64,000 nt of DNA. Origin: Planctomycetota bacterium (lineage in GTDB: Bacteria > Planctomycetota > UBA8742 > UBA2392). Each line of letters starts with the position of its first letter. Within the stretch, counting starts at the first letter, position 1. Position numbers and translations under genes: made by a program. The notes beneath the pieces are model-generated. The model saw only the letters and a program-made list of their open reading frames with translations, was not told the DNA's origin and searched no databases. Location: contig JAJVIO010000052.1 in the NCBI GenBank assembly GCA_022071975.1, positions 38,548 through 102,547 of the forward strand. Direction: 5' to 3'. Below are positions 10,556-58,688 of this stretch, piece by piece.

Positions 10556-10600
10556 GGCGGTCATGGTCGATGGTTAATGGTTGATGGTCAATGGTTCGTG
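10556..10600. repeat. tandem ATGGT(C/T)AATGGTT-type short repeat upstream of radA
   Basis: Seen directly: tcatggtcgatggttaatggttgatggtcaatggttcgtgg. Confidence 0.5.
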
Positions 10601-10603
10601 GCA

Positions 10604-10690
10604 GCGCCCCTACGGGGCGCGATGGGTTGGGCGGATATCATAACCCACGGCTGAAGCCGTGGGCTAAGACCCATGGCCCCTGCGGGGCCG
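10604..10690. repeat. REP-like module (GCGCCCCTACGGGGCGC / CCCACGGCTGAAGCCGTGGG / GGCCCCTGCGGGGCC palindromes)
   Basis: Three perfect palindromes. The same module recurs at 10910-10976 (inverted) and 11445-11531 (direct), flanking the RAYT gene. Confidence 0.7.
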
Positions 10691-10821
10691 AACAGGCGAA
10701 TCCCCGTGGCCTCGATGCGCTGCTAGTCCCCGTGCGCTGCTGGCCGCGATGCTCAGCCAAGCCTCACGCATAGCTGGCCTAGAAGCGCCGGTGGCTATAA
10801 AGGTTGCCGCACCGAGGCCAC

Positions 10822-10917: not shown

Positions 10918-10976
10918 CGGCTTCAGCCGTGGGTTTCGGATGCCGTAAACGAATCGCGCCCCGTAGGGGCGCAGCC
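10910..10976. repeat. REP-like module, inverted orientation
   Basis: CTTAGCCCACGGCTTCAGCCGTGGG...GCGCCCCGTAGGGGCGC, the reverse complement of the module at 10604. Confidence 0.65.
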
Positions 10977-11428
10977 TAGTCCCACAAGTAGCGTTCGTCG
11001 TATTCCATTCCGTGACGCTTCAGGAAGTCGATGAGTTCATCCTTGAACCCGCGCTTGAGGTGATGCTCTTCCTGTTCCGCGATGTATCGCTCCACGTTCG
11101 GAATCTTTGATTGACTGACGCTGAACGCGGCGTAGCCGGTCTGCCATGCGAACTTCGTGTCGAGTTTCAGTTCATCGTTCGCCCACCTGGAAGAACTTCC
11201 CTTGATCTGACGCAGGGCGTCGGCAAGCGAGACGGCGGTGCCGAGCCGGCACAGAATGTGTACGTGGTCTTCAACGCCGCCGATGGCGATCAGTTCTCCT
11301 CGAAGTTCTCGAACGATGCCGCCGATGTAGGCGTACAGTCTGGGCTTGGCGTCCGGAGTGATGATCGGCAGCCGATCCTTGGTGCTGAACACGAGGTGAT
11401 AGTTGAGATTGGTGTATGTATGTCCCAT
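10976..11428 (-). CDS. IS200/IS605-like Y1 (HuH) transposase, REP-associated tyrosine transposase (RAYT) type
   Basis: HVHIL HuH motif, catalytic Tyr region YAAFSVS, ~150 aa, start MGHTYTNLNYHLVFSTKDR. Flanked by REP modules. Confidence 0.85.
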   Translation of the reverse strand: MGHTYTNLNYHLVFSTKDRLPIITPDAKPRLYAYIGGIVRELRGELIAIGGVEDHVHILCRLGTAVSLADALRQIKGSSSRWANDELKLDTKFAWQTGYAAFSVSQSKIPNVERYIAEQEEHHLKRGFKDELIDFLKRHGMEYDERYLWD

Positions 11429-11444: not shown

Positions 11445-11531
11445 GCGCCCCTACGGGGCGCGTGTGAATTCGCGACCATGATACCCACGGCTGAAGCCGT
11501 GGGCTAAGTTCTTCGGCCCCTACGGGGCCAA
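11445..11531. repeat. REP-like module, direct orientation (downstream flank of RAYT)
   Basis: GCGCCCCTACGGGGCGC ... CCCACGGCTGAAGCCGTGGGCTAAG ... GGCCCCTACGGGGCC. Confidence 0.65.
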
Positions 11532-13101: not shown

Positions 13102-13164
13102 GGTGCAATCCTGTTGGGTGCCTCAATGTAGCGTGTTCGGTGGAACGAGCATAGGGCTAGGGGG

Positions 13165-13320
13165 TGCGAGGCGGCAGACGTCAGGCGGCAGGAACTGCGG
13201 TAACAGCGGATGACCAATGACCAAGTGAGAGACGTCGCCGTTTCCCCGGACTTGGGAATCCGCTGTGGTATCTCTGCCGCCTGCTGCCTGCCGCCTGCCG
13301 CCTGCCAACTGCTGCCTCGC
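13165..13320. repeat. long stem-loop whose arms are built from CTGCCGC/GCGGCAG heptamer units, between the MFS gene and ribD
   Basis: Left arm GCGAGGCGGCAGACGTCAGGCGGCAGG, right arm CCTGCCGCCTGCCGCCTGCC...GCTGCCTCGC. The loop contains a GATGACCAATGACCAAG tandem. Confidence 0.5.
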
Positions 13321-13330
13321 GACGCCGCCC

Positions 13331-14728
13331 CTACTCCGTCGTCCGCAACCTTACGAACGTCAGCCCCACCACCCCGCACACCGCCCCGCAAGCGCCGCCG
13401 ATAAAAAACAGTTCGCGCGGGCCGATCCACCCCAGGGCCGCACCCGTGGCCAGCGCACTCAAGGCCGTAAAACCCTGCACCGTGATGGTCACCAGCGCGA
13501 ACACGCGCCCCAGGCGCGCGCGGGGGTAGTGGCGCTGGATCAGCGTGGTGCGGCCGACGGTGATCAGCGGGATGGTCAGGCCGTGGATGAAGATCGCCAC
13601 CAGGAACTGCGGGAACGTTTCGAGCCACAGGAACGGCACGTAGGTAATGCCGTCCATGAACATGCCGATGATCACCAGCTTGCCGGTCTTGATACGCGAG
13701 CCGAAACGCGCGATCAGCACCGTGCCCACGAACCAGCCCGCCGCCAGGGCGGCCTCGAACACGCCATAGGCCCAGGTTTCCAGCCCCAGGTAGCCCTTGA
13801 TCAGGAACATCGCGCCCACGATCGCCGGGCCCATGATGAAGAAGTTGTCCACGGCCGTAAGGAACAGCAGCGCCCGCAGGCGCGAGTCTTTCCGGGCCGT
13901 GGCCAGGCTCTCGCGCAGCTCGTGGAGACTGCTGGGCCGGGGCCCCAGGGGACTGTCCCCGCTTTTGGGGACTGTCCCCGTCGTCGAAGACTCTTGAACG
14001 TCACCACCGGGAGTGCCAGACAAAGCACCCTCAGACTCATGCGACTTCACTGGCCCGACTACGGGGACAGTCCCCAAAGGCGGGGACAGTCCCCTTTGCT
14101 TGATCAGCAGCACGCACACGAAACTGAACGCGAAGCTGGCCGCGTCGGCCGCCAGCAGCCAGGCGATGCCCGTAGGGCCCGGCTTCTCGGCGCCGTAGAG
14201 TTCCGGCCACAGCAGCAGGCCCACCAGCCCGGCGCCCAGCACCACGGCCAGTTGCTGGCTGGTCTGGAAGATGCTGTTCACGCGCAGCAGCTGATAGCCC
14301 TGGGCCAGGTCGGGGATCAGCGCGTCGCGCGCCGGGTTGAACACCGTGGCGAACAGGTAGCTGCCGAAGGCCACGGCCGGCAGCATCCACCACTGCAGCA
14401 GTCCGGCGAAGTAGAGCACGGGGACCAGGCCGACGATCAGCGCGCGGGCGGCGTCGGAGAGCAGCATGATGCCGCGGCGCGAGAAGCGATCGACCAGCAC
14501 GCCGGCGTAAGCGCCGAAAATCAGGAAGGGCAGGGCGTCCATCATGCGCGTAAGGCCGACCTCAAAGCCGGCGTCGCGCCCGAGCATGTAGATGACCAGA
14601 AAGCCGATGCAGGTAGAGAACACCGAATCACCGGTGCCCGAAACAAACTGCGCCAGCCAGAGCAGGAACAGATTCCGCCGCCGATGAGGCGAAGCAGCAA
14701 CCCCAGACTCAGCACCCGCATCAACCAT
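13331..14728 (-). CDS. MFS transporter carrying an in-frame 49-codon repeat-element insertion in its central cytoplasmic loop
   Basis: Typical 12-TM MFS sequence. The TM6-TM7 loop is expanded by the 13948-14094 element (GTVPKSGDSPLGP...). Confidence 0.8.
   Translation of the reverse strand: MVDAGAESGVAASPHRRRNLFLLWLAQFVSGTGDSVFSTCIGFLVIYMLGRDAGFEVGLTRMMDALPFLIFGAYAGVLVDRFSRRGIMLLSDAARALIVGLVPVLYFAGLLQWWMLPAVAFGSYLFATVFNPARDALIPDLAQGYQLLRVNSIFQTSQQLAVVLGAGLVGLLLWPELYGAEKPGPTGIAWLLAADAASFAFSFVCVLLIKQRGLSPPLGTVPVVGPVKSHESEGALSGTPGGDVQESSTTGTVPKSGDSPLGPRPSSLHELRESLATARKDSRLRALLFLTAVDNFFIMGPAIVGAMFLIKGYLGLETWAYGVFEAALAAGWFVGTVLIARFGSRIKTGKLVIIGMFMDGITYVPFLWLETFPQFLVAIFIHGLTIPLITVGRTTLIQRHYPRARLGRVFALVTITVQGFTALSALATGAALGWIGPRELFFIGGACGAVCGVVGLTFVRLRTTE
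13948..14094. mobile_element. 147-bp MITE-like element with 32-bp terminal inverted repeats, each a tandem pair of GGGGAC(T/A)GTCCCC palindromes
   Basis: Left end GGGGACTGTCCCCgcttttGGGGACTGTCCCC; right end GGGGACAGTCCCCaaaggcGGGGACAGTCCCC. Length is exactly 49 codons, inside the MFS CDS. Confidence 0.65.
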
Positions 14729-18177: not shown

Positions 18178-18503
18178 GGGATTCTGGATTTTGGATTTTG
18201 GATTGGGTTGGAATGGGCCCCTGCACGACTCAGGCGTTCATTCGTGAAGCACTGCCTCTCGCACGATCTGCGAGTGATGCTCACACAGCAGCCCTTTTTG
18301 TGGCAGTGTCTTTTGTGCTTTCGTGTTTTTGTGGCCCGACAATGTGGTGGCACGCCAGAGATGGCAGCAGTTCTTGGCGCCTTGGCGTCTCCGCGTGAGC
18401 CCTGCAGTTACCGTCCCTTCGCTGAATCTGACCGGGGCAGAATTCACGTAACACTCCAACCCTTACGGCCGTACTTTGTTCGGTGCTTCACCCGGAGAGA
18501 CCG

Positions 18504-19931
18504 ATGAAAGGTTCCACCCTGCTCGCGGGCCTGTTGGCCCTGCTGATTGCCTGCGGCATCTCATTTGGCGCGGGCTACTACGTCGCCAAGGAACAGGGCG
18601 CTGCGCCCGCAACGCGCCCCGTTACCGTTGCCGACGCCAGCATTGACCAGAAGCCCGCCCCCGAGGTCAAGCCGCTGGAAGCCCCTGCCCGGGAGACCTC
18701 CGCCGAGACGCCGCCCGCACCCGAGAATCCCCCCGCGACGACCGGGAAGGTGCCCCCGAAGCCCGCATCAGAAGCGGGCGAAACCCCGGCCAAGTACGAG
18801 CCGACCGTTGAGGCCGAGCAGAACACCCAACCCGGCCCGGCCCAGCCCGCGGACCCCAAGGAACTCGAGGACCAGATCAATGAGCTGAAGGACAAGCTCA
18901 AAGACCTGAAGCTCGACGAGGTTGAAGACTTCGAGAGCATCTTCAACGGCCCCAAGGTCGACTTCACGGCCACGATCTCCGGCCAGGTGATCGACGGCGC
19001 CGGCGTGCCCGTAGCCGGCGCGCGCGTTTATGCCAGCTTCAGCGAGAACTACTCGTCAGACGGCGAGGGCCGCCGCATCGCCTTCGTGCGTTCCAGCGAC
19101 GACAGCGAAAGCGGCGAGCCGATCGCCACCACCGACGGCGCGGGCTTCTTCATGGCCGCGATCAACCGCAAGGTATCGGAAAAAGCCAGCCTGCAGGTCA
19201 GCCTGACAGCAAACGCCGACGGCTACGCCGAGAGCAAGAAGGACAGCTTCAGCCTCAAGAACGGCGACACAAAGGAGAACATCAAGCTCACCCTGCGCGG
19301 TGCCGGTACGGTTTCCGGCCGCGTGGTGGACGCCAACGGCATGGGCGTCGCGGGCGTGACGGTCAGCCTGAACCCGGCCGGCGGCGGCGACTTCATGGGC
19401 GGCGACAATATCGAGATCGACTTCGGCGGTCGCGGCGGCAAGTACAACGCCACCACCGACGGTGCGGGCGAGTTCCTGGTCACAGGCGTGCCGGAGGGGC
19501 GCTACAAGTTCCGGCTCAAGGGCGCGGGCTATCGCCAGGTCAGCGGGCCGACCGAGATCGATGTGAAGTCGGGCGAAAGCGCCCGCGCGGCGGCCGACTT
19601 CCAGGTGGCGATCACCGCCAGCATGGCCGTGAACTTCACGGATGCTGCGGGCAATCCTGTACAGGGCTGGGCCTCGGTCAAGATTACGGGCGAGGGTGGC
19701 AAGGTCGCTAAGCGCATGAACGGGCCGATCGGCAAGGACGGCCTGTTCGAGCAGAACGACCCGCCGGCCGGCAGCTACGAGGTTGAGTTCCAGGTATGGG
19801 GCTACAAGAAGCAGACCGTGCGGGCGAATTTCACGGAAGGCCAGCGCTACGACTTCGGCGCGATCACGCTCGAGCCCGATGCGGAGGGCGGCAGCGGCGG
19901 CAGTATCATCCTTCCCGGCGACGACGAGTAG
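18504..19931 (+). CDS. membrane-anchored protein with three carboxypeptidase-regulatory-like / Cna-B beta-sandwich repeats
   Basis: N-terminal TM, Pro/Ala/Glu-rich linker, then three repeats of the form G.V.D..G.PV.GA.V...(ATTDGAGEF-type). Confidence 0.7.
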   Translation: MKGSTLLAGLLALLIACGISFGAGYYVAKEQGAAPATRPVTVADASIDQKPAPEVKPLEAPARETSAETPPAPENPPATTGKVPPKPASEAGETPAKYEPTVEAEQNTQPGPAQPADPKELEDQINELKDKLKDLKLDEVEDFESIFNGPKVDFTATISGQVIDGAGVPVAGARVYASFSENYSSDGEGRRIAFVRSSDDSESGEPIATTDGAGFFMAAINRKVSEKASLQVSLTANADGYAESKKDSFSLKNGDTKENIKLTLRGAGTVSGRVVDANGMGVAGVTVSLNPAGGGDFMGGDNIEIDFGGRGGKYNATTDGAGEFLVTGVPEGRYKFRLKGAGYRQVSGPTEIDVKSGESARAAADFQVAITASMAVNFTDAAGNPVQGWASVKITGEGGKVAKRMNGPIGKDGLFEQNDPPAGSYEVEFQVWGYKKQTVRANFTEGQRYDFGAITLEPDAEGGSGGSIILPGDDE

Positions 19932-19944
19932 CAACCAGCGCGGA

Positions 19945-19980
19945 CGGGGACAGTCACCTCAGGTGACTGTCCCCTTTTTT
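19945..19980 (+). terminator. rho-independent terminator GGGGACAGTCACC-TCA-GGTGACTGTCCCC followed by a T-run
   Basis: 13-bp perfect stem plus TTTTTT, 14 nt after the stop codon. Confidence 0.8.
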
Positions 19981-22477: not shown

Positions 22478-22884
22478 ATTTGTCAGGATGGACAGGATGT
22501 GAATGGACGCGGACACTTGTGGAGCGCTCAAACTGAACCTGCGTCCTGTTGATTCCTGTACATCCTGACAACTGCGACTGCGGGGAACCACCAAGAGCAA
22601 TATCACGGTTCGTTCGCGGCCGTTCTGGCCCGAAGGGCCTGGCTAGGGTAGCCGGGGGCGGCAGCCCCCGGATCTTGGAGCCGCGATGCCGGGCGCCCGA
22701 AGGGCCGCCTAAAAGGTGCACTGCGCGGTTAGGCGGCCCTACGGGCGCGCGAGCGATCTGGTCCAGCTTCCGGGCGCTTACGCGCCCGGCTACCTTAGCG
22801 GGGCCCTTCGGGCCAGTTCGACTGCAAGCGAATCGTGAACGTGCCCTATGGAGTGCCATGAACGGTTCAGGTGGCCCTTCGTGG
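22478..22884. repeat. ~400-bp structured repeat, copy 2 (no MITE; internal segment in orientation B)
   Basis: See copy 1. Confidence 0.75.
22646..22794. repeat. ~150-bp segment bounded by GGGTAGCC/GGCTACC, orientation B (inverted relative to copy 1)
   Basis: Direct base-for-base comparison of the two copies. Confidence 0.7.
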
Positions 22885-24975: not shown

Positions 24976-25109
24976 CGGCACAGATGTACTTATCCGTGCC
25001 CGGACGCGCGCCCCAGGCGAGTGTTTCCATGGGCGGGGACACCCATGCCACGCCGGCCCCTGTACTCTGTACGCCGTACCCTGTACTCAGTACTCCCGTG
25101 CCCGACTTC

Positions 25110-26168
25110 ATGCTCAAACGCCACCTGCCGAACCTGGACGTGCCCCACGTTCAGCTCGGTGAGTACCCCACGCCCGTTGAGCATCTGCCGGCGCTGGGAG
25201 ACGTTTGGCTCAAGCGCGAGGACCTGTCCTCGCCGCTCTACGGCGGCAACAAGATCCGCACGCTGGAAACACTGTTCGCGGACGCCCTGGCGCGCGGCTT
25301 CAAGCGGGTCTGGACGCTGGGCGCCTACGGCAGCAACCAGGCCGTCGCCTGCATCCTGCACGCCAGGCGCGTCGGCCTTCAACCCGGCGCCGTGCTATTC
25401 CCCCAGCGCGCCACGCCCACGGCCGCGGAAAACCTGCGCGTAATGGTGACCGCTTGCGACGAAGTTGTCGCACTGCGCAGCCTGCTGACGTTCCCCTGGC
25501 ACTGGCTGAAGCTGAAGCGCTCGCGCGAAATCTACCTGGTGCCGCCCGGCGGCGCCGTGCCCCTGGGCGCGCTGGGCCACGTGGGCGCGGCGCTTGAACT
25601 GGCGGAACAGATCAACGCCGGGGCCATGCCCGCGCCGCGCCACATTGTGCTGGCGATCGGCAGCACCTGCACCACGGCGGGTCTGCTGGTGGGCCTGCCG
25701 CTCGCGCGGCAGCTTGGTTTATGGCCCGGCGAGCTTCCGCTGGTGCACGCCGTGCGCGTGACGCCCTGGCCCGTGACCGCGCGCTTTCAGGTGCTAAGGC
25801 TGGCGCGGGCCACTGCGCGCTACCTGGCGCAGGTCGGCGGGCCCGTTGTGAAGCTGCAACCCGAGCGGCTTGTGCTGAACACGCGCCACTTCGGCTGGGG
25901 CTACGCGCGCATCACCCAGGGCGGGCTCGCGGCCGCGAAGCACTTCGCCGAGCTGATGGCGCCGCCCCTGGACACCACCTACGCGGCGAAGTCCGGCGCG
26001 GCGCTGCTGGAGATGCTCGACACCGGGGACAGTCCCCTGCGGGGACAGTCCCCGGTCCTGTACTGGTGCACCAAATCCAGCGCGCCGCTGCCGCCCGTTG
26101 ACGAAGCAAAGCTCGCGACCGCCCCGGGTTACATCCGGCGCTGGCTGAAGCGCGCGGACAAGCTCTAG
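25110..26168 (+). CDS. PLP-dependent ACC deaminase / D-cysteine desulfhydrase family enzyme
   Basis: YGGNKIRTLE motif (family signature GGNKxRKLE). The C-terminal GDSPLRGQSP is encoded by a GGGGACAGTCCCC repeat pair. Confidence 0.8.
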   Translation: MLKRHLPNLDVPHVQLGEYPTPVEHLPALGDVWLKREDLSSPLYGGNKIRTLETLFADALARGFKRVWTLGAYGSNQAVACILHARRVGLQPGAVLFPQRATPTAAENLRVMVTACDEVVALRSLLTFPWHWLKLKRSREIYLVPPGGAVPLGALGHVGAALELAEQINAGAMPAPRHIVLAIGSTCTTAGLLVGLPLARQLGLWPGELPLVHAVRVTPWPVTARFQVLRLARATARYLAQVGGPVVKLQPERLVLNTRHFGWGYARITQGGLAAAKHFAELMAPPLDTTYAAKSGAALLEMLDTGDSPLRGQSPVLYWCTKSSAPLPPVDEAKLATAPGYIRRWLKRADKL

Positions 26169-29995: not shown

Positions 29996-31538
<1,543 letters not shown>

Positions 31539-31688
31539 TACATAGACTTCTATGAGAGGCGACTCTCATAGTCGTAAGGCATATCCTCTTTCATGGCTAT
31601 TCAACATACGCGTGCGCGGGGGCCCTGTCGTCTCGGGGCCCCCTTCGCACCCTTCGCAGTGGAAGACGGGCCGGCAACGGTCTCGGGC

Positions 31689-31765
31689 GCGCCGGTAGCT
31701 CAGCTGGTTAGAGCACACGCCTGATAAGCGTGAGGTCGGCGGTTCGAGTCCGCCCCGGCGCACCA
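31689..31765 (+). tRNA. tRNA-Ile (anticodon GAT)
   Basis: Cloverleaf with acceptor GCGCCGG/CCGGCGC, anticodon loop CTGATAA, encoded CCA. Confidence 0.9.
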
Positions 31766-31787
31766 TTCCACGGCAGCCGGGACGCAA

Positions 31788-31862
31788 GGGCCGGTAGCTC
31801 AGTGGTAGAGCGTCGCCTTTGCAAGGCGAGGGTCAGGGGTTCGACTCCCCTCCGGTCCACCA
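31788..31862 (+). tRNA. tRNA-Ala (anticodon TGC)
   Basis: Acceptor GGGCCGG/CCGGTCC with the G3:U70 identity pair, anticodon loop TTTGCAA, encoded CCA. Confidence 0.9.
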
Positions 31863-32280
31863 GCCTTCGCACTTTGTGCTTCGGCTGTCAGGCCAGGCGG
31901 CGCGCGTATGAGGTCGAGGTTTGGGAATGTGCGCCTGGGCGCATGCTCTCGAGCCCCGACGACGAGTCGGGTTTCGGCTCTTTGACAACAGCATACTGTG
32001 ATAGATCAGAGTGACTAGATTACTCCAGATTAGTGTTATCCTAGTAAGATAACCTATTCGCTAAGCCGCCGCCGGGAGGCGTCGGAAAGCGCGCGTCTGG
32101 AGAAAGTAACCAAGGCATCAACGATGAAACAGCAGCTGACGTCGCGAGACGTCGGGTGCTGACGCTACAACGTGTCTTGAGGCCTCAGCCACGGGATTGG
32201 CCGGGCGGCTTGTATTGTCGGCCCGGTCGGGAACGGAGCGAGAGGAAAGCGCACTCCTGGAGGGATCCAGGGGTTGTTGT

Positions 32281-35240
<2,960 letters not shown>

Positions 35241-35399
35241 CAACAATCTCCGGGTCTCCCGGAGTGTTGCAAAGCAAACGTGTATTAGCGATTCCAAGAC
35301 ACGTCGTTAGCGTCTCACGTGATGCCTTGTCACTAAAATCTATCCAGTATGCTGTTGTCAGCGAGCCGCGCTCGCTTTGAAAACCTTACGAGAATTTTT

Positions 35400-35508
35400 C
35401 TCGGTGCCCTTACCCTCGGGGACACACCCGATCCCATCTCGAACTCGGAAGTTAAGCCCGTGGGGCCGATGATAGTCGAAAGGCGAAAGTAGGTTGGTGC
35501 CGGGATAT
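35400..35508 (+). rRNA. rrf: 5S ribosomal RNA
   Basis: Conserved CCCATCTCGAACTCGGAAGTTAAGC and GCCGATGATAGT blocks. The terminal helix CUCGGUGCC/GGUGCCGGG pairs through G-U wobbles. Confidence 0.8.
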
Positions 35509-48200: not shown

Positions 48201-48512
48201 ATGCTGGTGCCGCCCGAGGGAAAGATCGAGGAAAAGGATGTCACCCTGCTGAACAAGAAGCAGGCATTCGACGTTCACGAACTGGTGTTCACCCTCCTGC
48301 CGCAGCGCATGGCGCGCATCCTGGACGCCCTGCGCAACGGGGTGTTCCTGCACCTGCCCTTCCGCCCTTCGGGCAATCCCTGCGGCTACTGCGACTACGC
48401 GGCCGCCTGCGCGCGGCGCGACGACGTGATCGCCGCCCGCCAGCAGCGCCTGGGCGAGTCCGAGACGCCTGAGGTCGCCCACGTCTACCTGCCCGACACG
48501 GAGGAGGCATGA
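45255..48512 (+). CDS. addB: AddB/RexB-like subunit of AddAB-type helicase-nuclease (PD-(D/E)xK nuclease with Fe-S cluster cysteines)
   Basis: C-terminal VIVDYKTGK nuclease motif and CGYCDYAAAC cysteines; 1085 aa. ATGA overlap with the downstream UvrD-like gene. Confidence 0.75.
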   Translation: MAIELLRVGLGDDVSAHVAALLRDAARAAEPFAPAPVVYVASHERRARAISRLAGEQYPEGTPDRVARELLKLFAPEIRLRGEVERDFDFFGALGETLHELGESRRAGRALVDELLVAWKRFAQTIPPDQRGDAQLAAWLPSLGRRGELFGALVRRYVARLKQTGQHDPEDACWLAAQLGEPLAPGLLVVDDLDRVTPAREALLAALAARSTRALFILRGNRELLPFLAQSHEISQQLMFAGEGRVLPERQWPQRALAGACENWLQDAPVNDAIEVLRPASRTAEIREAARAVKRARHDGLSLSEICVAMPSTGNYRELIEEIFAAAGIPYDAPFELPLDETAPVAALLDLLRAAIRGLGRNELLDALASPFVPFEAADEATQLAVRATLDEVTRESFIVGGRNVARDWLQRLRASNHPAWPSISAPVAHILEALEPFTHGRLAAVKFLKSLEALVDASGAQRVVSAERGSEPGAALRAEALHAFRTLLREMREEFRRGGNPELPTGELLRALVEQARTRSVRPPEAAAERVRVLGLRELRGVSFQRLIVLGLTDQDLPLSEEETLFLPAAREQALAEVLGPRVAAELCAPIDVTAQADYLFAHTLLAAAGALTLMLPAGEGDTPFVPATPFARLLRCMGLGELDKLPACSDGEPPVSAGELAARAASLLAPAERDGRKCKETIALSGPLAAGLHGRCIELARTDLASPPGEYEGVVGARPELAARFAAEGEQRHLFSPSQLDSFAECPMRFWSRYIMAARAPDEPSLDTKPQAIGTLLHAVFERWVLLLRERAGQPAVLPEPVKRAPVKLLELGADRGEARTIGLQLMADAFEHALQQHPTQGPFWEGVKKLVASGLPGYAELGLGSGLLARFVEQELQRNADGLGIRFVEFDFGKNNAPEPHRPDTVPGEIELAIPGGAMRLMGSVDRVDEGPEGLVIVDYKTGKAKSAAEIRDGKAFQLAAYLAAISQVAGTPPRGMAYMLVPPEGKIEEKDVTLLNKKQAFDVHELVFTLLPQRMARILDALRNGVFLHLPFRPSGNPCGYCDYAAACARRDDVIAARQQRLGESETPEVAHVYLPDTEEA

Positions 48513-51500
48513 ACACGCCGGCCGCCGCCAGCAGGCTCAACGACGGGCAGCGCGCGGCGCTGGACCTTTCGCGCGACATGCTGGTCAGCGCGGGCGCCGG
48601 CGCGGGCAAGACCCAGGTGCTGGGCCTGCGCTACCTGGCGCTGCTTGAGGAGGGGCTGGCGGCGGTGCCCGACATCGTCGCGTTCACGTTCACGGACAAG
48701 GCCGCCGCCGAGATGCGCGAGCGCGTGCAGCGCCTGCTGCTGGCGCGCATCCTCGAGCTGCAGGGCGGCGACAAGCAGCGGCTGGCGCGCCTGCGCCAGG
48801 CCCAGGCCGAGTTCGCGCGCAACCGCATCAGCACCATGCACGGCTTCTGCCACCGCCTGCTGCGCGACTACGCCTGGGAGGCCGGGCTGGAGCCGCGCGC
48901 GCCGGTGCTGGACGAGCGCGCCCAGGCCCTGTGCCGCGAGCGGGCCATCCGCGCCGTGCTGCTGGCCACGGATGCGAGTGACAACCCGGCACTGGCTGAA
49001 GCGCTGGTGCGGCTGGGCAGTGTGGTGAGGCTGTATTCGCTTTCCGGCTCGCTGTCCGAGATGCTGCGCAAACGCGCCTTCGTGCGCGAGCCGCTGCAAC
49101 GCGCCGCCGAGCTGTGGGCCGACCCGGACGCCGAAGTAACCCGTCGGCGCGAGGCGTGGGAAGGCATGTTCGCCGGGCCGCTGCAGGCGACGCTGGGCGC
49201 GATCAAACGCATCGACCACGCCGCAGCGGCCGGCGCCAAGGACGGCGACAAGCTGAAGCAGCTCGTGTTTGACCTGCGCGAAGCCGCCAAAGCCCGCGAC
49301 GTGTTCAGGCTGCGCGGGCTGCTGTTGACTAACGACGGCACGCCGCGCAAACCCGGCGGCGCCAAGACCGGCTGGAAACACGCGCCCGACGCGCTGGAAA
49401 CCGTGCGCGAACAGGTCAGCACGGCCGCCATGGCACTGGCGCCGGCGGCCGAGGTGCTGGGCTTCCCGTTCGACGAAGCGTTTGAGCGCCGCGCCGGCGC
49501 CGTGGCGCGCGACCTGGCCGTGGTGTTCGAGGCCGTGTGCGCCGCATACACCGAGGAGTGCGCGGGAGGGCTGGACTTCCTTGACCTCGAGCTGCGCGCC
49601 CTGGAGCTGCTGCGCCGCGAGCCCGAGGTGCGCAAACAGGCGATCGAGGCCGCGCGCTACCTGCTGGTGGACGAGTACCAGGACACCAACCCCACGCAGG
49701 CGGAGCTGCTGGCGCTGCTGACCGACGAGGCCGACGCGCCCGGGCGTTTCTTTGCGGTGGGAGATGCGAAGCAGTCAATTTATGCCTTCCGGGGCAGCGA
49801 CGTGCGTGTGTTCAACCAGGCGCTGGAGTGGATCCCGCAGCGCAACGCGAACTCAGGCGCAGGCAAGCGTGGCATGCAGCCCCCATGGGGCTTGACCTGT
49901 CAAGATACGCCCGAGCGCCGGAGCGGCATCGTGCGCTTGGAGCACAACTACCGCACCGTGCAGCCGGTGCTCGAGCTCGGCAACCGGCTGTTCGCCGCGA
50001 TCTTCGGCGCCGGGCCGTACCGCGACTTCGACGCGCGGCCGCAGGACATGCTGTTCGACAAGCATGCCGGCAAGCGGCCGGAGCGCGAGCTTGATAAGCC
50101 GGTCGAGTTTCACCTGCTGCCCGGCGCGAACTCAGCCGAGGAAGCGGAGTACCTGGCGCAACAGGTCGAGCGCCTGCGTGACGAGGGCGTGCAGCTTTCC
50201 GACGTGGCGATCCTGGTGCGCCGCAGTACGCGCAACGCCCAGTACCGCGAGGCCTTCGCGCGGCGCGACCTGCCGCTGCTGGTGATCGGCGAGAGCGGCC
50301 TGTTCACCACGCAGGAGGCGCTTGATTGCATCAACCTGCTGCGCGTGCTGGCCAACCCGGCCGATGACATCGCGATGCTGGGCGTGCTGCGCTCGCCATT
50401 AGGGGGCCTGTCAGATGCCTTCCTGACCGAGCTGGCGCTGGGCAGCAACCGCCACCACACGCTGCTCAAGCGCCTGCAGGACTGGTCGGACAAACCGCCG
50501 GCCGCGCAGAGTTTCCTGGCTGGCTATGAGCGCCTGCGCAGCCGCGCCGGCCGTGACGCCCCGGCGCTGCTGCTGGGCGAAGCGCTGGCAGCCTTCGGCT
50601 ACCAGCTGGCGGTCGGCTGCGGCCCGGACGCCGAGCAGCGCCTGGCCAACGTGAACCGCATGCTTGAGCTGGTGCGCGCCATGCAGCACGAGCTGCCATC
50701 GCTGGCGCCCCTGGTGCGCGAGCTGCGTGAACGCCTCGAGCGCGGCGAAGACGAAACCCAGGGCGTGCCCGACCGCAGCGTCGAGGGCGTGCGGTTGATG
50801 ACCATCCACAAGGCCAAGGGGCTGGAGTTCCCGGTGGTGATCCTGCCCGACCTCGCCGGAGAAGGGGGCGGCGGCGGCCAGGGCATGGTGCGCGAGCTGC
50901 CCGAGCAGGAGGGCGAGCCCTTGGGCATCTACCTCAAGAGCCTCGACGACGACGATCGCGGCGAATACCGCAGCGACTTTGCCGCCTGGCGCGCAAAGTA
51001 CGCGGCGATCGAGCGCGGCCTGGCCGAGGAAAAACGCGTGCTGTACGTGGCCTGGACCCGCGCCTCCGAGCGCTTGCTGTTGCTCGGCAGCCTGAAGCCC
51101 GACAAGGAATTCGACAAGCAGCACTGGGCGCACCAGCTGCTGCGCGCGCTTGAAGTGCGTGACTGGGAAGGCGCAGCGCCGCAGCCATGCGTGCGCATGG
51201 TGTGGCCTGATGCCGTGCAGCCGGGCGAGGCGCGGCCGCACACGCCCGCCATCGAGGCCGCGCGCAAGGCACTGCAGAAAGGCAAGCTGCCGCTACCCGC
51301 GCCGATCGATGCCGCGCTGGTGGCGCCGGTGGGGGAAGCGGCCGCAAAACCGCGCGCCTTCGACCCGGAGGCCGTCGAGTTCGGCACCCTGGTGCACGCC
51401 GGCCTGGAGCGCCGGCTGCGCGGGGCGGAAGTCGGTGTGCTGGACGCCCGCGCGCTCAGCCACGTGCAACGCGCGGCCGAGGCGCTGGCCACGCTGGGCA

Positions 51501-51817
51501 AGGCGCGCCGCGAGTTGCCGGAGTTCGGCTTCATGACGCCGGATGGCCCGCGGCGTCTCGACCTGCTGCGCGAGCTGGCAAACGGCGAGTACGAGATCAT
51601 CGACTACAAGACCGACACTGTGGAAAGCGACCTCGCCGGCCACGCGGAAACCCACCACGGCGAGCAGCTGCGTGGCTATGCGACCGCGTTGCGCGAGTAC
51701 CTGAAAGCGCGCGGGCGTGAGGCGAAACGCGTGCGCCTGTTTGTTTGTTTCACCGCGCCGGATGGCTTGCGGCCCGCGCAGCGGCTGGTTGAAATCGCGC
51801 CAGGGGACAGTCCCTGA
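48509..51817 (+). CDS. addA: AddA/RecB-like UvrD-family helicase with C-terminal PD-(D/E)xK nuclease
   Basis: Walker A AGAGAGKTQ, DEYQDTN, NYRT, and C-terminal EIIDYKTD. The last codons overlap a GGGGACAGTCCCT repeat. Confidence 0.85.
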   Translation: MNTPAAASRLNDGQRAALDLSRDMLVSAGAGAGKTQVLGLRYLALLEEGLAAVPDIVAFTFTDKAAAEMRERVQRLLLARILELQGGDKQRLARLRQAQAEFARNRISTMHGFCHRLLRDYAWEAGLEPRAPVLDERAQALCRERAIRAVLLATDASDNPALAEALVRLGSVVRLYSLSGSLSEMLRKRAFVREPLQRAAELWADPDAEVTRRREAWEGMFAGPLQATLGAIKRIDHAAAAGAKDGDKLKQLVFDLREAAKARDVFRLRGLLLTNDGTPRKPGGAKTGWKHAPDALETVREQVSTAAMALAPAAEVLGFPFDEAFERRAGAVARDLAVVFEAVCAAYTEECAGGLDFLDLELRALELLRREPEVRKQAIEAARYLLVDEYQDTNPTQAELLALLTDEADAPGRFFAVGDAKQSIYAFRGSDVRVFNQALEWIPQRNANSGAGKRGMQPPWGLTCQDTPERRSGIVRLEHNYRTVQPVLELGNRLFAAIFGAGPYRDFDARPQDMLFDKHAGKRPERELDKPVEFHLLPGANSAEEAEYLAQQVERLRDEGVQLSDVAILVRRSTRNAQYREAFARRDLPLLVIGESGLFTTQEALDCINLLRVLANPADDIAMLGVLRSPLGGLSDAFLTELALGSNRHHTLLKRLQDWSDKPPAAQSFLAGYERLRSRAGRDAPALLLGEALAAFGYQLAVGCGPDAEQRLANVNRMLELVRAMQHELPSLAPLVRELRERLERGEDETQGVPDRSVEGVRLMTIHKAKGLEFPVVILPDLAGEGGGGGQGMVRELPEQEGEPLGIYLKSLDDDDRGEYRSDFAAWRAKYAAIERGLAEEKRVLYVAWTRASERLLLLGSLKPDKEFDKQHWAHQLLRALEVRDWEGAAPQPCVRMVWPDAVQPGEARPHTPAIEAARKALQKGKLPLPAPIDAALVAPVGEAAAKPRAFDPEAVEFGTLVHAGLERRLRGAEVGVLDARALSHVQRAAEALATLGKARRELPEFGFMTPDGPRRLDLLRELANGEYEIIDYKTDTVESDLAGHAETHHGEQLRGYATALREYLKARGREAKRVRLFVCFTAPDGLRPAQRLVEIAPGDSP

Positions 51818-51896
51818 AAGGAACTATCCCCGTAGTCGATCCGTGAAGCGGTCTCGTTGGCCGTCACGTGTTGGATGGGTTTCGCCGGCTCGAAGA

Positions 51897-51925
51897 CGGG
51901 GACAGTCCCCTGCGGGGACAGTCCC
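51897..51925. repeat. tandem pair GGGGACAGTCCCC-TGC-GGGGACAGTCCCC, 8 bp upstream of the MATE start
   Basis: Seen directly; the same pair occurs at 26025-26053. Confidence 0.7.
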
Positions 51926-51933
51926 CAACGCTT

Positions 51934-53319
51934 ATGGCTCTGCTGATCAAAGACTCGAACCAGTTGCGGCACGTGCTGTTCTTCGGCATGCCGCTGGTGC
52001 TTGGGCTGGCGTGCCACGCGCTGTTCAACCTGGTGGACACCCTGCTGGTCGGCCAACTGGGCGACATTGAGGGCGCCCGCGCGATCAGCGTGACTGGTTT
52101 GTGCGACCCGATCACCACCTTCCAGACCATCCTGTTCAACGGGCCCATTGCCGGCGCCGGGGTGCTGCTGGCGCGGGGGGTGGGCGCCAAGGATGACGAA
52201 GGCCTGCGCCGTGTGGCCTTGCGCGCCACGAGCGTGGTGATCGCGCTGTCGCTGCTGATGGCCGTGCCCGGGCTGATCTGGGCCGAGGAAATCGCCACCG
52301 CCATGGGCGCCCAGGCCGGCTGGCAGCTCGAGCAGTGCGCCGAATACCTGCGCATCATGCTGGGCGGCGGCATCACGGCCGGCATGTTCCTGTACCTGAC
52401 CACCGTCGAGCGCAGCCTGGGGCGCACCAGCCTGTTCCTGGGCTTTTTCATGTTAAGCAACCTGCTGAACGCGGGGCTGGGCCTGCTGCTGATCTACGGC
52501 GACGGGCCGTACCCGGGCTTCGTGCCCGGTTTCCTGCGCGAGCTGGGCATCCCGCGCATGGGCGTGATCGGCAGCGCGTGGTCCACCGTTGGCGCGCGCG
52601 CGATCGCGGGCGTGATGCTGCTGGGCTTCGGCCTGTGGCGCGGGCACATGCGCGGCAAGCTGACCTGGCTGTGGCCACAGGGCAAGACGGCGCTTGAGCT
52701 GATACGCATCGGGCTGTGGAACAACGGGCAGATCGCCGCGCGCGGCATCGCGGGCGGCGTGATGATCCGCAGCATGCAGGAGGCCGGTGACCGCGACCCC
52801 AGCGTGCTGGGCGGCATTTTCGTGGGGCTGAAGATCGAGCTGCTGCTGATCCTGCTGTCGTTCGGCTGGGGCGCCGCGGCGCAGACCCTGGTCGCCACCA
52901 GCCTCGGCGCCGGCAAGCCCGAGCGCGCGGCACACGAAGAACGGCTGGCTGTGGTGTTCGCGGTGCTGACCGGCATCGCGCTGACCGTGCCGCTGTTCGT
53001 GTTCGCCGAGGAAGTGGCGGCCGTGTTCAACCCCGAGCCCGCGCTGGTGGGCTGGGCCGAGACGTACGTTCAGCTGATGGCCGTGGCGTTCCTGTTCGTG
53101 CCGGTGAACATCGTGATCAGCCAGGCGCTGGTCTCGCGCGACCGGCTGAAGACGCCGGTGCTGATCGACTCCATCGTGCTGCTGGGCGTGATGACGCCCG
53201 CCATGATCATCGCCACCCTGGCAGGCGCGCCTGTGAAAGCGCTGATCATCCTGAACGCGGGCGTGAACATCGCGCTTACGCTGATCTACGTCGCGGTGCG
53301 CTGGCGGATCGGCCGGTAG
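51934..53319 (+). CDS. MATE family efflux transporter
   Basis: 12-TM protein with the MATE N-terminal pattern (FFGMPLVLG...). Confidence 0.85.
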   Translation: MALLIKDSNQLRHVLFFGMPLVLGLACHALFNLVDTLLVGQLGDIEGARAISVTGLCDPITTFQTILFNGPIAGAGVLLARGVGAKDDEGLRRVALRATSVVIALSLLMAVPGLIWAEEIATAMGAQAGWQLEQCAEYLRIMLGGGITAGMFLYLTTVERSLGRTSLFLGFFMLSNLLNAGLGLLLIYGDGPYPGFVPGFLRELGIPRMGVIGSAWSTVGARAIAGVMLLGFGLWRGHMRGKLTWLWPQGKTALELIRIGLWNNGQIAARGIAGGVMIRSMQEAGDRDPSVLGGIFVGLKIELLLILLSFGWGAAAQTLVATSLGAGKPERAAHEERLAVVFAVLTGIALTVPLFVFAEEVAAVFNPEPALVGWAETYVQLMAVAFLFVPVNIVISQALVSRDRLKTPVLIDSIVLLGVMTPAMIIATLAGAPVKALIILNAGVNIALTLIYVAVRWRIGR

Positions 53320-58014: not shown

Positions 58015-58043
58015 GGGGACAGGCACCTTGGTGCCTGTCCCCC
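58015..58043 (+). terminator. terminator hairpin GGGGACAGGCACC-TTG-GTGCCTGTCCCC
   Basis: 13-bp perfect stem 15 nt after the thrS stop. Confidence 0.75.
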
Positions 58044-58119: not shown

Positions 58120-58220
58120 TTGGCTGGTTCTGGCCCGCATAGCGGGCCAGCGAATGTAGCCTTGGGCGCAAGCCCAAGGTTGAATTGTTGCCGCAATCTT
58201 CAAGCCCGCGTAGCGGGCGA
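58120..58220. repeat. REP-like palindromes (GGCCCGCATAGCGGGCC; CCTTGGGCGCAAGCCCAAGG; GCCCGCGTAGCGGGC) upstream of the second RAYT
   Basis: Perfect palindromes seen directly; a different family from the 10604 modules. Confidence 0.6.
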
Positions 58221-58238
58221 CCGACCCGAAGGGAACGC

Positions 58239-58688
58239 ATGGCACAGACTTGGACGAAGCTCCTGTACCACGTCGTTTTTTCAACCAAGGATCGTCGTGA
58301 GCTGATCGTGCCAGCCTTCCAGCCCAAGCTGCACGCCTATATGGGCGGCATTATCAAGCGGCTCAAGGGTACACCCCTGATGATCGGCGGCGTGGCGGAT
58401 CACGTCCACGTCTTCACTTCGATTCCGCCGACGATCGCTGTTTCGGACTTCATGCGGGAGTTGAAAGCCGGCTCCAGCAAGTGGATCAACGAGGAGTCGC
58501 GCTCTGCGGTGCCATTCGAGTGGCAACGAGGGTATGCCGCATTCACAGTTGCACCCTCAGGCCGGGAAGCTTTGGAGCGCTACATCCTGGGGCAAGACGA
58601 GCATCACAACGGGCGTTCGTTCATCGACGAACTGAAGTCGTTGCTTGACGAGTACAGCGTGGACTACGACCCGCAGTACCTCGAATGA
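58239..58688 (+). CDS. IS200/IS605-like Y1 transposase (RAYT), second copy
   Basis: LLYHVVFSTKDR, HuH motif HVHVF, catalytic Tyr region YAAFTVA. ~45% identical to the 10976-11428 protein. Confidence 0.85.
   Translation: MAQTWTKLLYHVVFSTKDRRELIVPAFQPKLHAYMGGIIKRLKGTPLMIGGVADHVHVFTSIPPTIAVSDFMRELKAGSSKWINEESRSAVPFEWQRGYAAFTVAPSGREALERYILGQDEHHNGRSFIDELKSLLDEYSVDYDPQYLE

Follow-up and report, generated by a model that had tools for sequence, protein, structure and literature searches.

A 147-bp inverted-repeat structure read in frame within a planctomycete MFS transporter gene is probably a REPIN-like cluster of TIR/REP repeats

The 64-kb stretch of Planctomycetota DNA analyzed here (contig JAJVIO010000052.1, hereafter the window) carries on its minus strand, at 13331-14728, a gene for a DHA3-like MFS transporter. 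The protein has 465 aa and 12 predicted helices, and its open reading frame (ORF) matches the MFS_1 (E = 7e-22) and MFS_3 (E = 5e-10) profiles. Within the part of this gene that specifies the loop between transmembrane helices 6 and 7 (TM6-TM7) lies a 147-bp inverted-repeat structure (13948-14094), which at exactly 49 codons is read through in frame. The original prediction, made from the sequence, described this structure as a textbook miniature inverted-repeat transposable element (MITE) tolerated inside a coding region. Its coordinates, size, repeat structure and frame are as described, and a selfish inverted-repeat element tolerated in frame remains the best account of it, but the MITE label does not hold. 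The structure is probably a non-autonomous, REPIN-like cluster of terminal inverted repeat (TIR)/repetitive extragenic palindromic (REP) repeats, belonging with the TIRYT/RAYT class of Y1 (HUH) transposases.

The structure consists of two inverted tandem pairs of a 13-bp palindrome around an 83-bp centre. Arm 1 (13948-13979, assigned to the minus strand) reads GGGGACTGTCCCC-GCTTTT-GGGGACTGTCCCC on the plus strand, with exact 13-mers beginning at 13948 and 13967, and goes on as GTCGTCG to 13986. Arm 2 (14063-14094, plus strand), which is preceded by CGACTAC from 14056, reads GGGGACAGTCCCC-AAAGGC-GGGGACAGTCCCC, with exact 13-mers at 14063 and 14082. The 32-bp ends are thus each a tandem palindrome pair, as predicted, and the complementarity of the arms in fact reaches 40 nt (13947-13986 against 14056-14095, 95% complementary). 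Because GGGGACAG is present exactly once in each palindrome, the central A or T sets the orientation of the repeat, and each GGGGACAGTCCCC amounts to one oriented head fused to its own complement; the heads read on the minus strand in arm 1 and on the plus strand in arm 2, giving the order T T - centre - A A. GTAG occurs only beside the inner palindrome of one arm. The 147 nt fold as a single long hairpin, whether as RNA (-110.4 kcal/mol, z = -9.4) or as DNA (-53.4 kcal/mol, z = -9.9), and a single tandem pair alone also folds as a hairpin.

That the structure is built from a palindrome dispersed through the surrounding DNA was likewise upheld: the exact palindrome has eight copies in the window against 0.00 expected from 100 shuffles, and with up to one mismatch there are 11 copies against 0.04 expected by shuffling. 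A search of the whole window against Rfam 15 gave, at the gathering score, no covariance-model match within 13948-14094 and none at the remaining palindrome loci.

The structure encodes residues ~212-261 of the MFS protein, and the location of these residues is clear from an AlphaFold2 model built from 28 sequences (mean pLDDT 85.6). The first six helices run to residue 211, the sixth spanning 184-211, and helices begin again at residue 267; residues 217-259 are disordered, with pLDDT < 50. The element therefore codes for the middle of the TM6-TM7 loop, which we take, from general MFS topology, to lie on the cytoplasmic side of the membrane. The translation of the palindrome is free of stops in all six frames, giving GDSP, GTVP and GQS and, from the other strand, GDCP, GTVP and GLS, so that every residue it encodes is Gly, Pro, Ser, Thr, Asp, Gln, Cys, Leu or Val. 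Among the element-bearing MFS genes the ratio of nonsynonymous to synonymous substitution rates (dN/dS) outside the loop is 0.07-0.09, and the transporter gene is therefore still under purifying selection; with the frame intact as well, the insertion is tolerated, and transporter function has presumably been kept despite the insert.

The MFS protein is on record from a Planctomycetes metagenome-assembled genome (MAG), and an alignment with its orthologs bore out the predicted loop insertion. A short loop of ~12 residues occupies the insert position in 20 of the 27 aligned orthologs, and we found no palindrome-free ortholog with an equally long and similar loop. The inserts of the window protein and of P0002, P0003, P0005 and P0007 are rich in GTVP, GDSP and GQSP, corresponding to three frames of the palindrome. 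Locus L204 (P0006, 78% identical to the window's protein) provides an empty site, a clean short loop of sequence APRKTLAEADS. The same element is found in L005/L006 (P0002, 92% identical), though of its two outer palindromes the left is broken and the right carries a mismatch; a gap-free alignment to the window element covers 128 nt and contains 14 differences, and the centre (13980-14062) is 85% identical, having diverged at about the synonymous rate. In L004 (P0003, 92% identical) the four palindromes are kept and the centre is reduced to ~20 nt, while in L203 (P0005, from MAG HKST-UBA88, GCA_020425515.1; 77% identical) the palindromes and arms occupy the same position around an unrelated centre.

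A further state is found in L003 (P0004, MAG FR_29, GCA_027493625.1; 87% identical), where a different 43-nt hairpin of the GGGGTCAGGC head type, AGGGGTCAGGCACAATT...AATTGAGCCAGACCCCT, lies at L003 3630-3685 (DNA fold z = -5). This locus was considered as an empty site and ruled out in favor of L204, since another hairpin repeat is present and the gene is nested among element-bearing ones: the synonymous divergence (dS) of the L003 MFS gene is 0.12 to that of L005 and 0.2 to that of the window. Its state is therefore a replacement or loss and not ancestral, and two repeat types, the 147-bp element and the GGGGTCAGGC hairpin, appear to swap at one site. The GGGGTCAGGC head type also flanks L123, which encodes the nearest relative, among the loci compared, of the L029 transposase described below.

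These comparisons establish that the 147-bp structure is an insertion relative to the orthologs and that the site turns over among close relatives. In a neighbor-joining (NJ) tree of the MFS genes the element-bearing genes fall in three separate clades, a distribution that could reflect either one ancient insertion with several losses or more than one insertion at a hot-spot. When the window is compared with L005, differences occur at 1 of 39 palindrome positions and at 13 of 89 positions elsewhere (Fisher p = 0.06), which is suggestive of greater conservation in the palindromes than in the centre.

The palindrome recurs elsewhere in the window, within genes as well as between them. A second intragenic copy, the single tandem pair GGGGACAGTCCCC-TGC-GGGGACAGTCCCC (26025-26053, plus strand), lies in frame in a gene for a pyridoxal phosphate (PLP)-dependent, D-cysteine desulfhydrase-like enzyme (~25100-26168), where it encodes LDTGDSPLRGQSP for a net gain of 6 aa over the loop of element-free orthologs; the pair is shared by one ortholog at 80% identity, and in another, at 90%, the sequence is different. 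A 124-bp sister element of the same architecture (51803-51926, plus strand) has an exact pair on the right and a degenerate one on the left, and like the 147-bp element it contains CCCCGTAGTCGA and TCGAAGAC-GGGG as sub-terminal motifs. A UvrD/AddA-like helicase-nuclease gene (48509-51817, 1102 aa) takes its final codons (...GDSP*) and TGA stop (51815-51817) from the degenerate first palindrome, its C-terminus having been remodelled by the repeat, and the other end of the element lies 8 bp upstream of a MatE start at 51935. Two related head-to-head hairpins are intergenic and on the plus strand. One, GGGGACAGTCACC-TCA-GGTGACTGTCCCC followed by TTTTTT (19946-19974), has a terminator-like score and lies 15 bp past the stop of the ORF at 18483-19931; the other, GGGGACAGGCACC-TT-GGTGCCTGTCCCC (58015-58042), is of the GGGGACAGGC head type, which also flanks many TIRYT genes. 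In FR_29 pairs occur at no fewer than 6 loci, and copies lie inside KsgA-like and TrpE genes; with the MFS gene, the PLP enzyme and the helicase stop, these show that intragenic pairs are frequent in the present planctomycete lineage.

Searching 185,579 species genomes with the tandem pair returned at least 116 loci, for which the chance expectation, given 26 specified bases, is ~0.002 matches. The pairs occur in at least 14 phyla, among them Planctomycetota, Actinomycetota, Omnitrophota, Pseudomonadota, Myxococcota, WOR-3, Acidobacteriota and Patescibacteria, and the sequence that flanks them is wholly different between lineages. All-against-all BLASTP of the genes around the 116 loci among the matches listed revealed no mobile-element gene in common, the largest cluster being ABC ATPases. 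Where four palindromes occur together, the centres differ completely in sequence and range from ~20 to ~100 nt in length. Two more elaborate arrangements were also seen. At L060 1529-1684 (an Allosphingosinicella MAG), and also at L120, nine palindromes stand head to tail with an 18-bp period (GGGGACAGTCCCC+GGTAG/GGCGG), and two frames of the L060 array are open and would give the hexapeptide repeats GTVPGR or GQSPVG. In six Candidatus Kuenenia MAG loci (L009, L072, L082, L087, L101 and L115) the pairs lie within a longer repeat with the conserved right flank GAGCGTCCGGCGAGATGGCACGGGCAACCCC, which has the appearance of a larger, lineage-specific element based on this palindrome.

The genes that the pairs do bracket point to the enzyme class. 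In L029, a Planctomycetota MAG locus, a gene for a 210-aa Y1/HUH transposase is tightly enclosed between two copies of GGGGACTGTCCCC and three of GGGGACAGTCCCC, and the order T T - gene - A A, found in L180 as well, is the same as the order of palindromes around the centre of the MFS element. The L029 protein matches Pfam Y1_Tnp (E = 8e-15) and carries the motifs NHFH, WQ and YVERNP, which are invariant or nearly so in an alignment of its relatives; its homologs number 3593. Inverted palindrome pairs flank TIRYT-like genes at four independent loci (L029, L180, L169 and L206/L207), and among 80 metagenomic loci encoding relatives the bracketing is partial at two more, L156 and L152. Within the L029 clade, P0123 (85% identical to the L029 protein) is flanked by palindrome pairs, among them an 89-nt arrangement of four palindromes; the flanks are AAAAGGGGACATCCCCCTTTT for P0129 and P0130 (77% and 75%) and GGGGACATTCTGC dimers for P0133 (64%). 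More widely, flanking inverted repeats that start with a GGGGAC/GGGGTC or GGGAC head were found for 49 of the 63 relatives examined, the commonest being GGGGACAGGC, GGGGACATTC and GGGGTCAGGC. The gene order A2M - transposase - DUF202 is common to L029, L205, L206/L207 and L208, which suggests a single-copy gene that is vertically inherited.

A single clade of palindrome-flanked TIRYTs, with horizontal transfer behind the cross-phylum spread, was considered as well and finds no support in a rough NJ tree of these proteins. The palindrome-flanked TIRYTs fall there on four separate branches, each beside relatives with non-palindromic heads, and the tree suggests that the self-complementary form of the repeat may have arisen more than once.

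The association with transposase genes also bears on whether the palindromes might instead be functional sites of the host, for instance sites bound by a dimeric protein or hairpins that act in termination or RNA stability, amplified by selection rather than by transposition, with the MFS copy a by-product. The terminator position and T-run of the hairpin at 19946-19974 would fit this idea, as would the many actinobacterial and Omnitrophota pairs that directly follow stop codons with A/T runs flanking them, and the possible conservation of the palindromes beyond neutral expectation noted above. On the other hand, copies lie in unrelated coding regions (MFS, PALP enzyme, KsgA, TrpE) for which no common regulatory role is plausible, and presence, absence and replacement differ between strains that are 92-94% identical. 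Given in addition the tight association of the pairs with transposase genes, we consider selection by the host an improbable origin.

The size of the element, its lack of coding capacity of its own, and its terminal inverted repeats of 32-40 nt are what a classical MITE would have, that is, a deletion derivative of an insertion sequence with a DDE transposase, mobilized via its terminal inverted repeats. However, no flanking direct repeat that could be a target-site duplication is present at any of three copies in the window (the 147-bp element, 26025-26053 and 51803-51926). There is no shared DDE gene near the 116 palindrome loci, and the only genes found bracketed by pairs are those for Y1/HUH transposases of RAYT/TIRYT type. 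Nor is the centre common to many copies as it should be in a MITE family: in the window and ~200 loci, the 83-bp centre was found a second time only at the orthologous site in the sister strains L005/L006. The textbook MITE of the original prediction is thus very hard to sustain, and a REPIN-like or TIR-repeat cluster is the better name.

The restriction of the centre to the orthologous site has a second consequence: the structure may be a composite, made up of two arms, and not one transposed unit. On this account two palindrome pairs, each a small hairpin with ~8 nt of sub-terminal sequence, would have arrived separately and in inverted orientation around older loop sequence, much as in a bacterial interspersed mosaic element (BIME), and the 147 bp would never have been mobile as a whole. 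The existence of solo pairs such as 26025-26053, the ability of a lone pair to fold as a hairpin, and the complete variation of the centres of four-palindrome structures in sequence and length are all in keeping with separate arrival. Against it, the complementarity of the arms passes beyond the palindromes, to 40 nt at 95%, and the centre has no similarity to the ancestral loop APRKTLAEADS. Moreover, the sub-terminal motifs PP-GTAGTCG and TCGA(A/C)GAC-PP (where PP is a palindrome pair) recur together in several four-palindrome structures from different genomes (two copies in the window, and L010, L084 and L203), which suggests a paired unit. A composite origin is accordingly a possibility that we take seriously while doubting it.

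The window itself encodes two Y1 transposases, both of IS200 type, which could be imagined to mobilize the element, lying as they do within 3 kb and 44 kb of it. The first gene (10976-11428, minus strand; motifs DHVH, WQ and YIAEQEEHH) lies between inverted copies of a module of three hairpins, GCGCCCCTACGGGGCGC / CCCACGGCTGAAGCCGTGGG / GGCCCCTACGGGGCC, of which a third copy lies at 10600-10692. A match to the Rfam Acido-Lenti-1 RNA (11484-11529) overlies two hairpins of the module, and the supposed small RNA motif therefore looks here like a REP-type repeat of the Y1 transposase. A second Acido-Lenti-1 match (22770-22815, 38.5 bits) falls in a run of GC-rich hairpins with no adjoining transposase gene, and may be a solo copy of the same module. 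The other transposase gene (58185-58688, plus strand) is flanked by several hairpins with GTAG/CTAC in the loop, for example GCCCGCGTAGCGGGC and CGCCCGCTACGCGGGC, a further distinct repeat set in the same 64 kb.

The first of these genes is also present between ribD and radA in L004, L203 and L204, and is lacking there in L001-L003 and L005/L006. L004 and L203 thus have both this gene and the MFS element, as would be expected if the one moved the other, but in L204 the gene accompanies an empty MFS site, and in L005/L006 the element is found without the gene. In addition, the hairpins that flank the two transposase genes, of the GCGCCCCTACGGGGCGC / CCCACGGCTGAAGCCGTGGG / GGCCCCTACGGGGCC and GCCCGCGTAGCGGGC types, differ from the palindrome, and none is GGGGACWGTCCCC. 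With unrelated flanking hairpins, and a presence that does not track that of the element, the window's own Y1 transposases were rejected as its mobilizers, a role that is most unlikely to be theirs.

We therefore favor a TIRYT encoded elsewhere in the genome and acting in trans. By analogy with the TnpA proteins of IS200/IS608 and with TnpA-REP, such an enzyme would recognize the heads or hairpins on single-stranded DNA, and would cut and rejoin the repeats without a target-site duplication; a single-stranded DNA mechanism of this kind would account for the missing duplications. The tandem pair is already a hairpin, and two inverted pairs would give the long hairpin predicted for the 147 nt. 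The copy in the MFS gene fell within the codons of the disordered TM6-TM7 loop, where extra residues are tolerated, and it persists because its length is a multiple of three, because the palindrome is free of stops in six frames and encodes small or flexible residues, and because the host loop is disordered.

The assignment to a known class rests on the fact that Y1 genes flanked by inverted repeats with GGGGWSAS-type heads match the published TIRtrons, RAYT-like TIRYT genes with inverted repeats on either side that have GGGGWSAS in common (Di Nocera et al. 2013, PMC3733652). Most TIRYTs belong to TnpA-REP subclass 2.1 (Quentin et al. 2018, PMC6006769). The likeness extends to a Y1/HUH transposase with a Y---NP motif and inverted flanking repeats, the head here, GGGGACAG, fitting GGGGWSAS (PMC3733652, PMC6006769). 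Published TIR repeat families are moderately abundant and occur as singles, dimers or groups, some of them self-complementary or 'double palindromic' (PMC3733652), and the repeats described here are similarly dispersed as singles, dimers and groups. They differ in that the repeat is a minimal 13-bp palindrome in tandem pairs, the copies of which are frequently intragenic and in frame, whereas the published intragenic cases are GTAG and CGTC REPs and not TIR repeats. The tyrosine motif differs too, being YVERNP here, in contrast to the published subclass 2.1 consensus of YIELNP or Y[IV]HLNP, as does the tail of the L029 protein, in which the expected helix-turn-helix (HTH) was not detected.

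With REPIN-RAYT systems the element shares its non-autonomous character and the formation of one hairpin from two inverted repeats (Bertels & Rainey 2011, PMC3116915; Nunvar et al. 2010, PMC2817692), and the single-copy Y1 gene flanked by the same repeats and syntenic between relatives (L029, L205-L208) is a further point in common. Classical REPs, however, are extragenic, imperfect palindromes of 20-40 nt with a 5' GTAG tag, whereas here the tag is GGGGACAG and several copies are within genes. In-frame palindromic repeats in functional genes have precedents in the Rickettsia palindromic elements (RPEs), the classic case, and in the REP dimers of Opitutus terrae, which add 20-50 residues in tolerant regions (PMC3733652), the in-frame intragenic REP dimers reported for Opitutus terrae and Rickettsia conorii accounting for 20-30 residues (PMC3733652). 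The repeat family is another one, RPEs ending in a CGTC tag, and no transposase is associated with RPEs (PMC3733652). Finally, bacterial MITEs such as Correia/NEMIS, RUP, Nezha and ERIC are likewise small, hairpin-forming and sometimes intragenic, with terminal inverted repeats and no coding capacity of their own, but they duplicate their target sites and derive from DDE-type parent insertion sequences, and neither feature was seen here. Apart from unrelated eukaryotic primers, a full-text literature search for the exact 12- and 13-mers yielded nothing, and we found no published description of the minimal 13-bp tandem-pair form, of its frequent intragenic location in this planctomycete lineage, or of its cross-phylum spread.

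Several observations speak against the assignment and must be set beside those in its favor. The best NCBIfam model for the L029 protein is indeed 'REP-associated tyrosine transposase', but the score of 67.6 bits is under the curated cut-off of 80 bits, and Pfam finds Y1_Tnp as its only domain, with no C-terminal HTH in a tail of ~70 aa. The exact palindrome lies on both sides of the gene at only 2 of the 80 metagenomic TIRYT loci (L180 and L169), and 6 of the 80 have it anywhere. There is no L029-type TIRYT gene in the 64-kb window, the two Y1 transposases there being of IS200 type with unrelated flanking hairpins. The centre, as discussed above, recurs only at the orthologous site among the loci compared, and the 147 bp may not have moved as one unit; to our knowledge no biochemical work on any TIRYT exists. 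We nevertheless regard a REPIN-like cluster of the TIRYT/RAYT class as the probable identity of the structure.

Two other features of the window can be noted. Downstream of the MFS gene, a 230-bp spacer between its stop and the ribD start (13150-13320) contains GC-rich short repeats, with CTGCCGC runs at ~13275-13320 and an inverted partner at ~13165-13200; no FMN riboswitch is reported by Rfam in this MFS-ribD spacer. A complete rRNA operon (16S, two spacer tRNAs, 23S and 5S) at 29996-35505 accounts for a stretch of low GC and high GC skew.

Selfish palindromic DNA within genes is already known, and the present case is a clear but fairly ordinary example of it. Its value lies in being a clean, multi-strain one, in which intact, decaying, centre-deleted and replaced states of an element in a functional gene can be compared among close relatives. 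It also connects a 13-bp palindrome that had no name with a little-studied branch of the HUH transposases, the TIRYTs, a link that suggests a very small and defined DNA substrate for these enzymes. For annotation it is a caution, as Gly/Pro/Ser/Thr-rich loop inserts (GTVP, GDSP, GQSP) in Planctomycetota proteins can derive from repeats, and such repeats can provide the stop codons and 5' leaders of neighboring genes. A bolder proposal, which we offer tentatively and hold to be less likely than its opposite, is that GGGGACAGTCCCC pairs are a minimal pan-bacterial TIRYT substrate, a form that has arisen repeatedly and that routinely colonizes the loops of housekeeping proteins, where it is kept or replaced at the DNA level while the surroundings drift. 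If this were so, the MFS site would be a hot-spot at which insertion recurs and from which proteins continually gain new disordered linkers.

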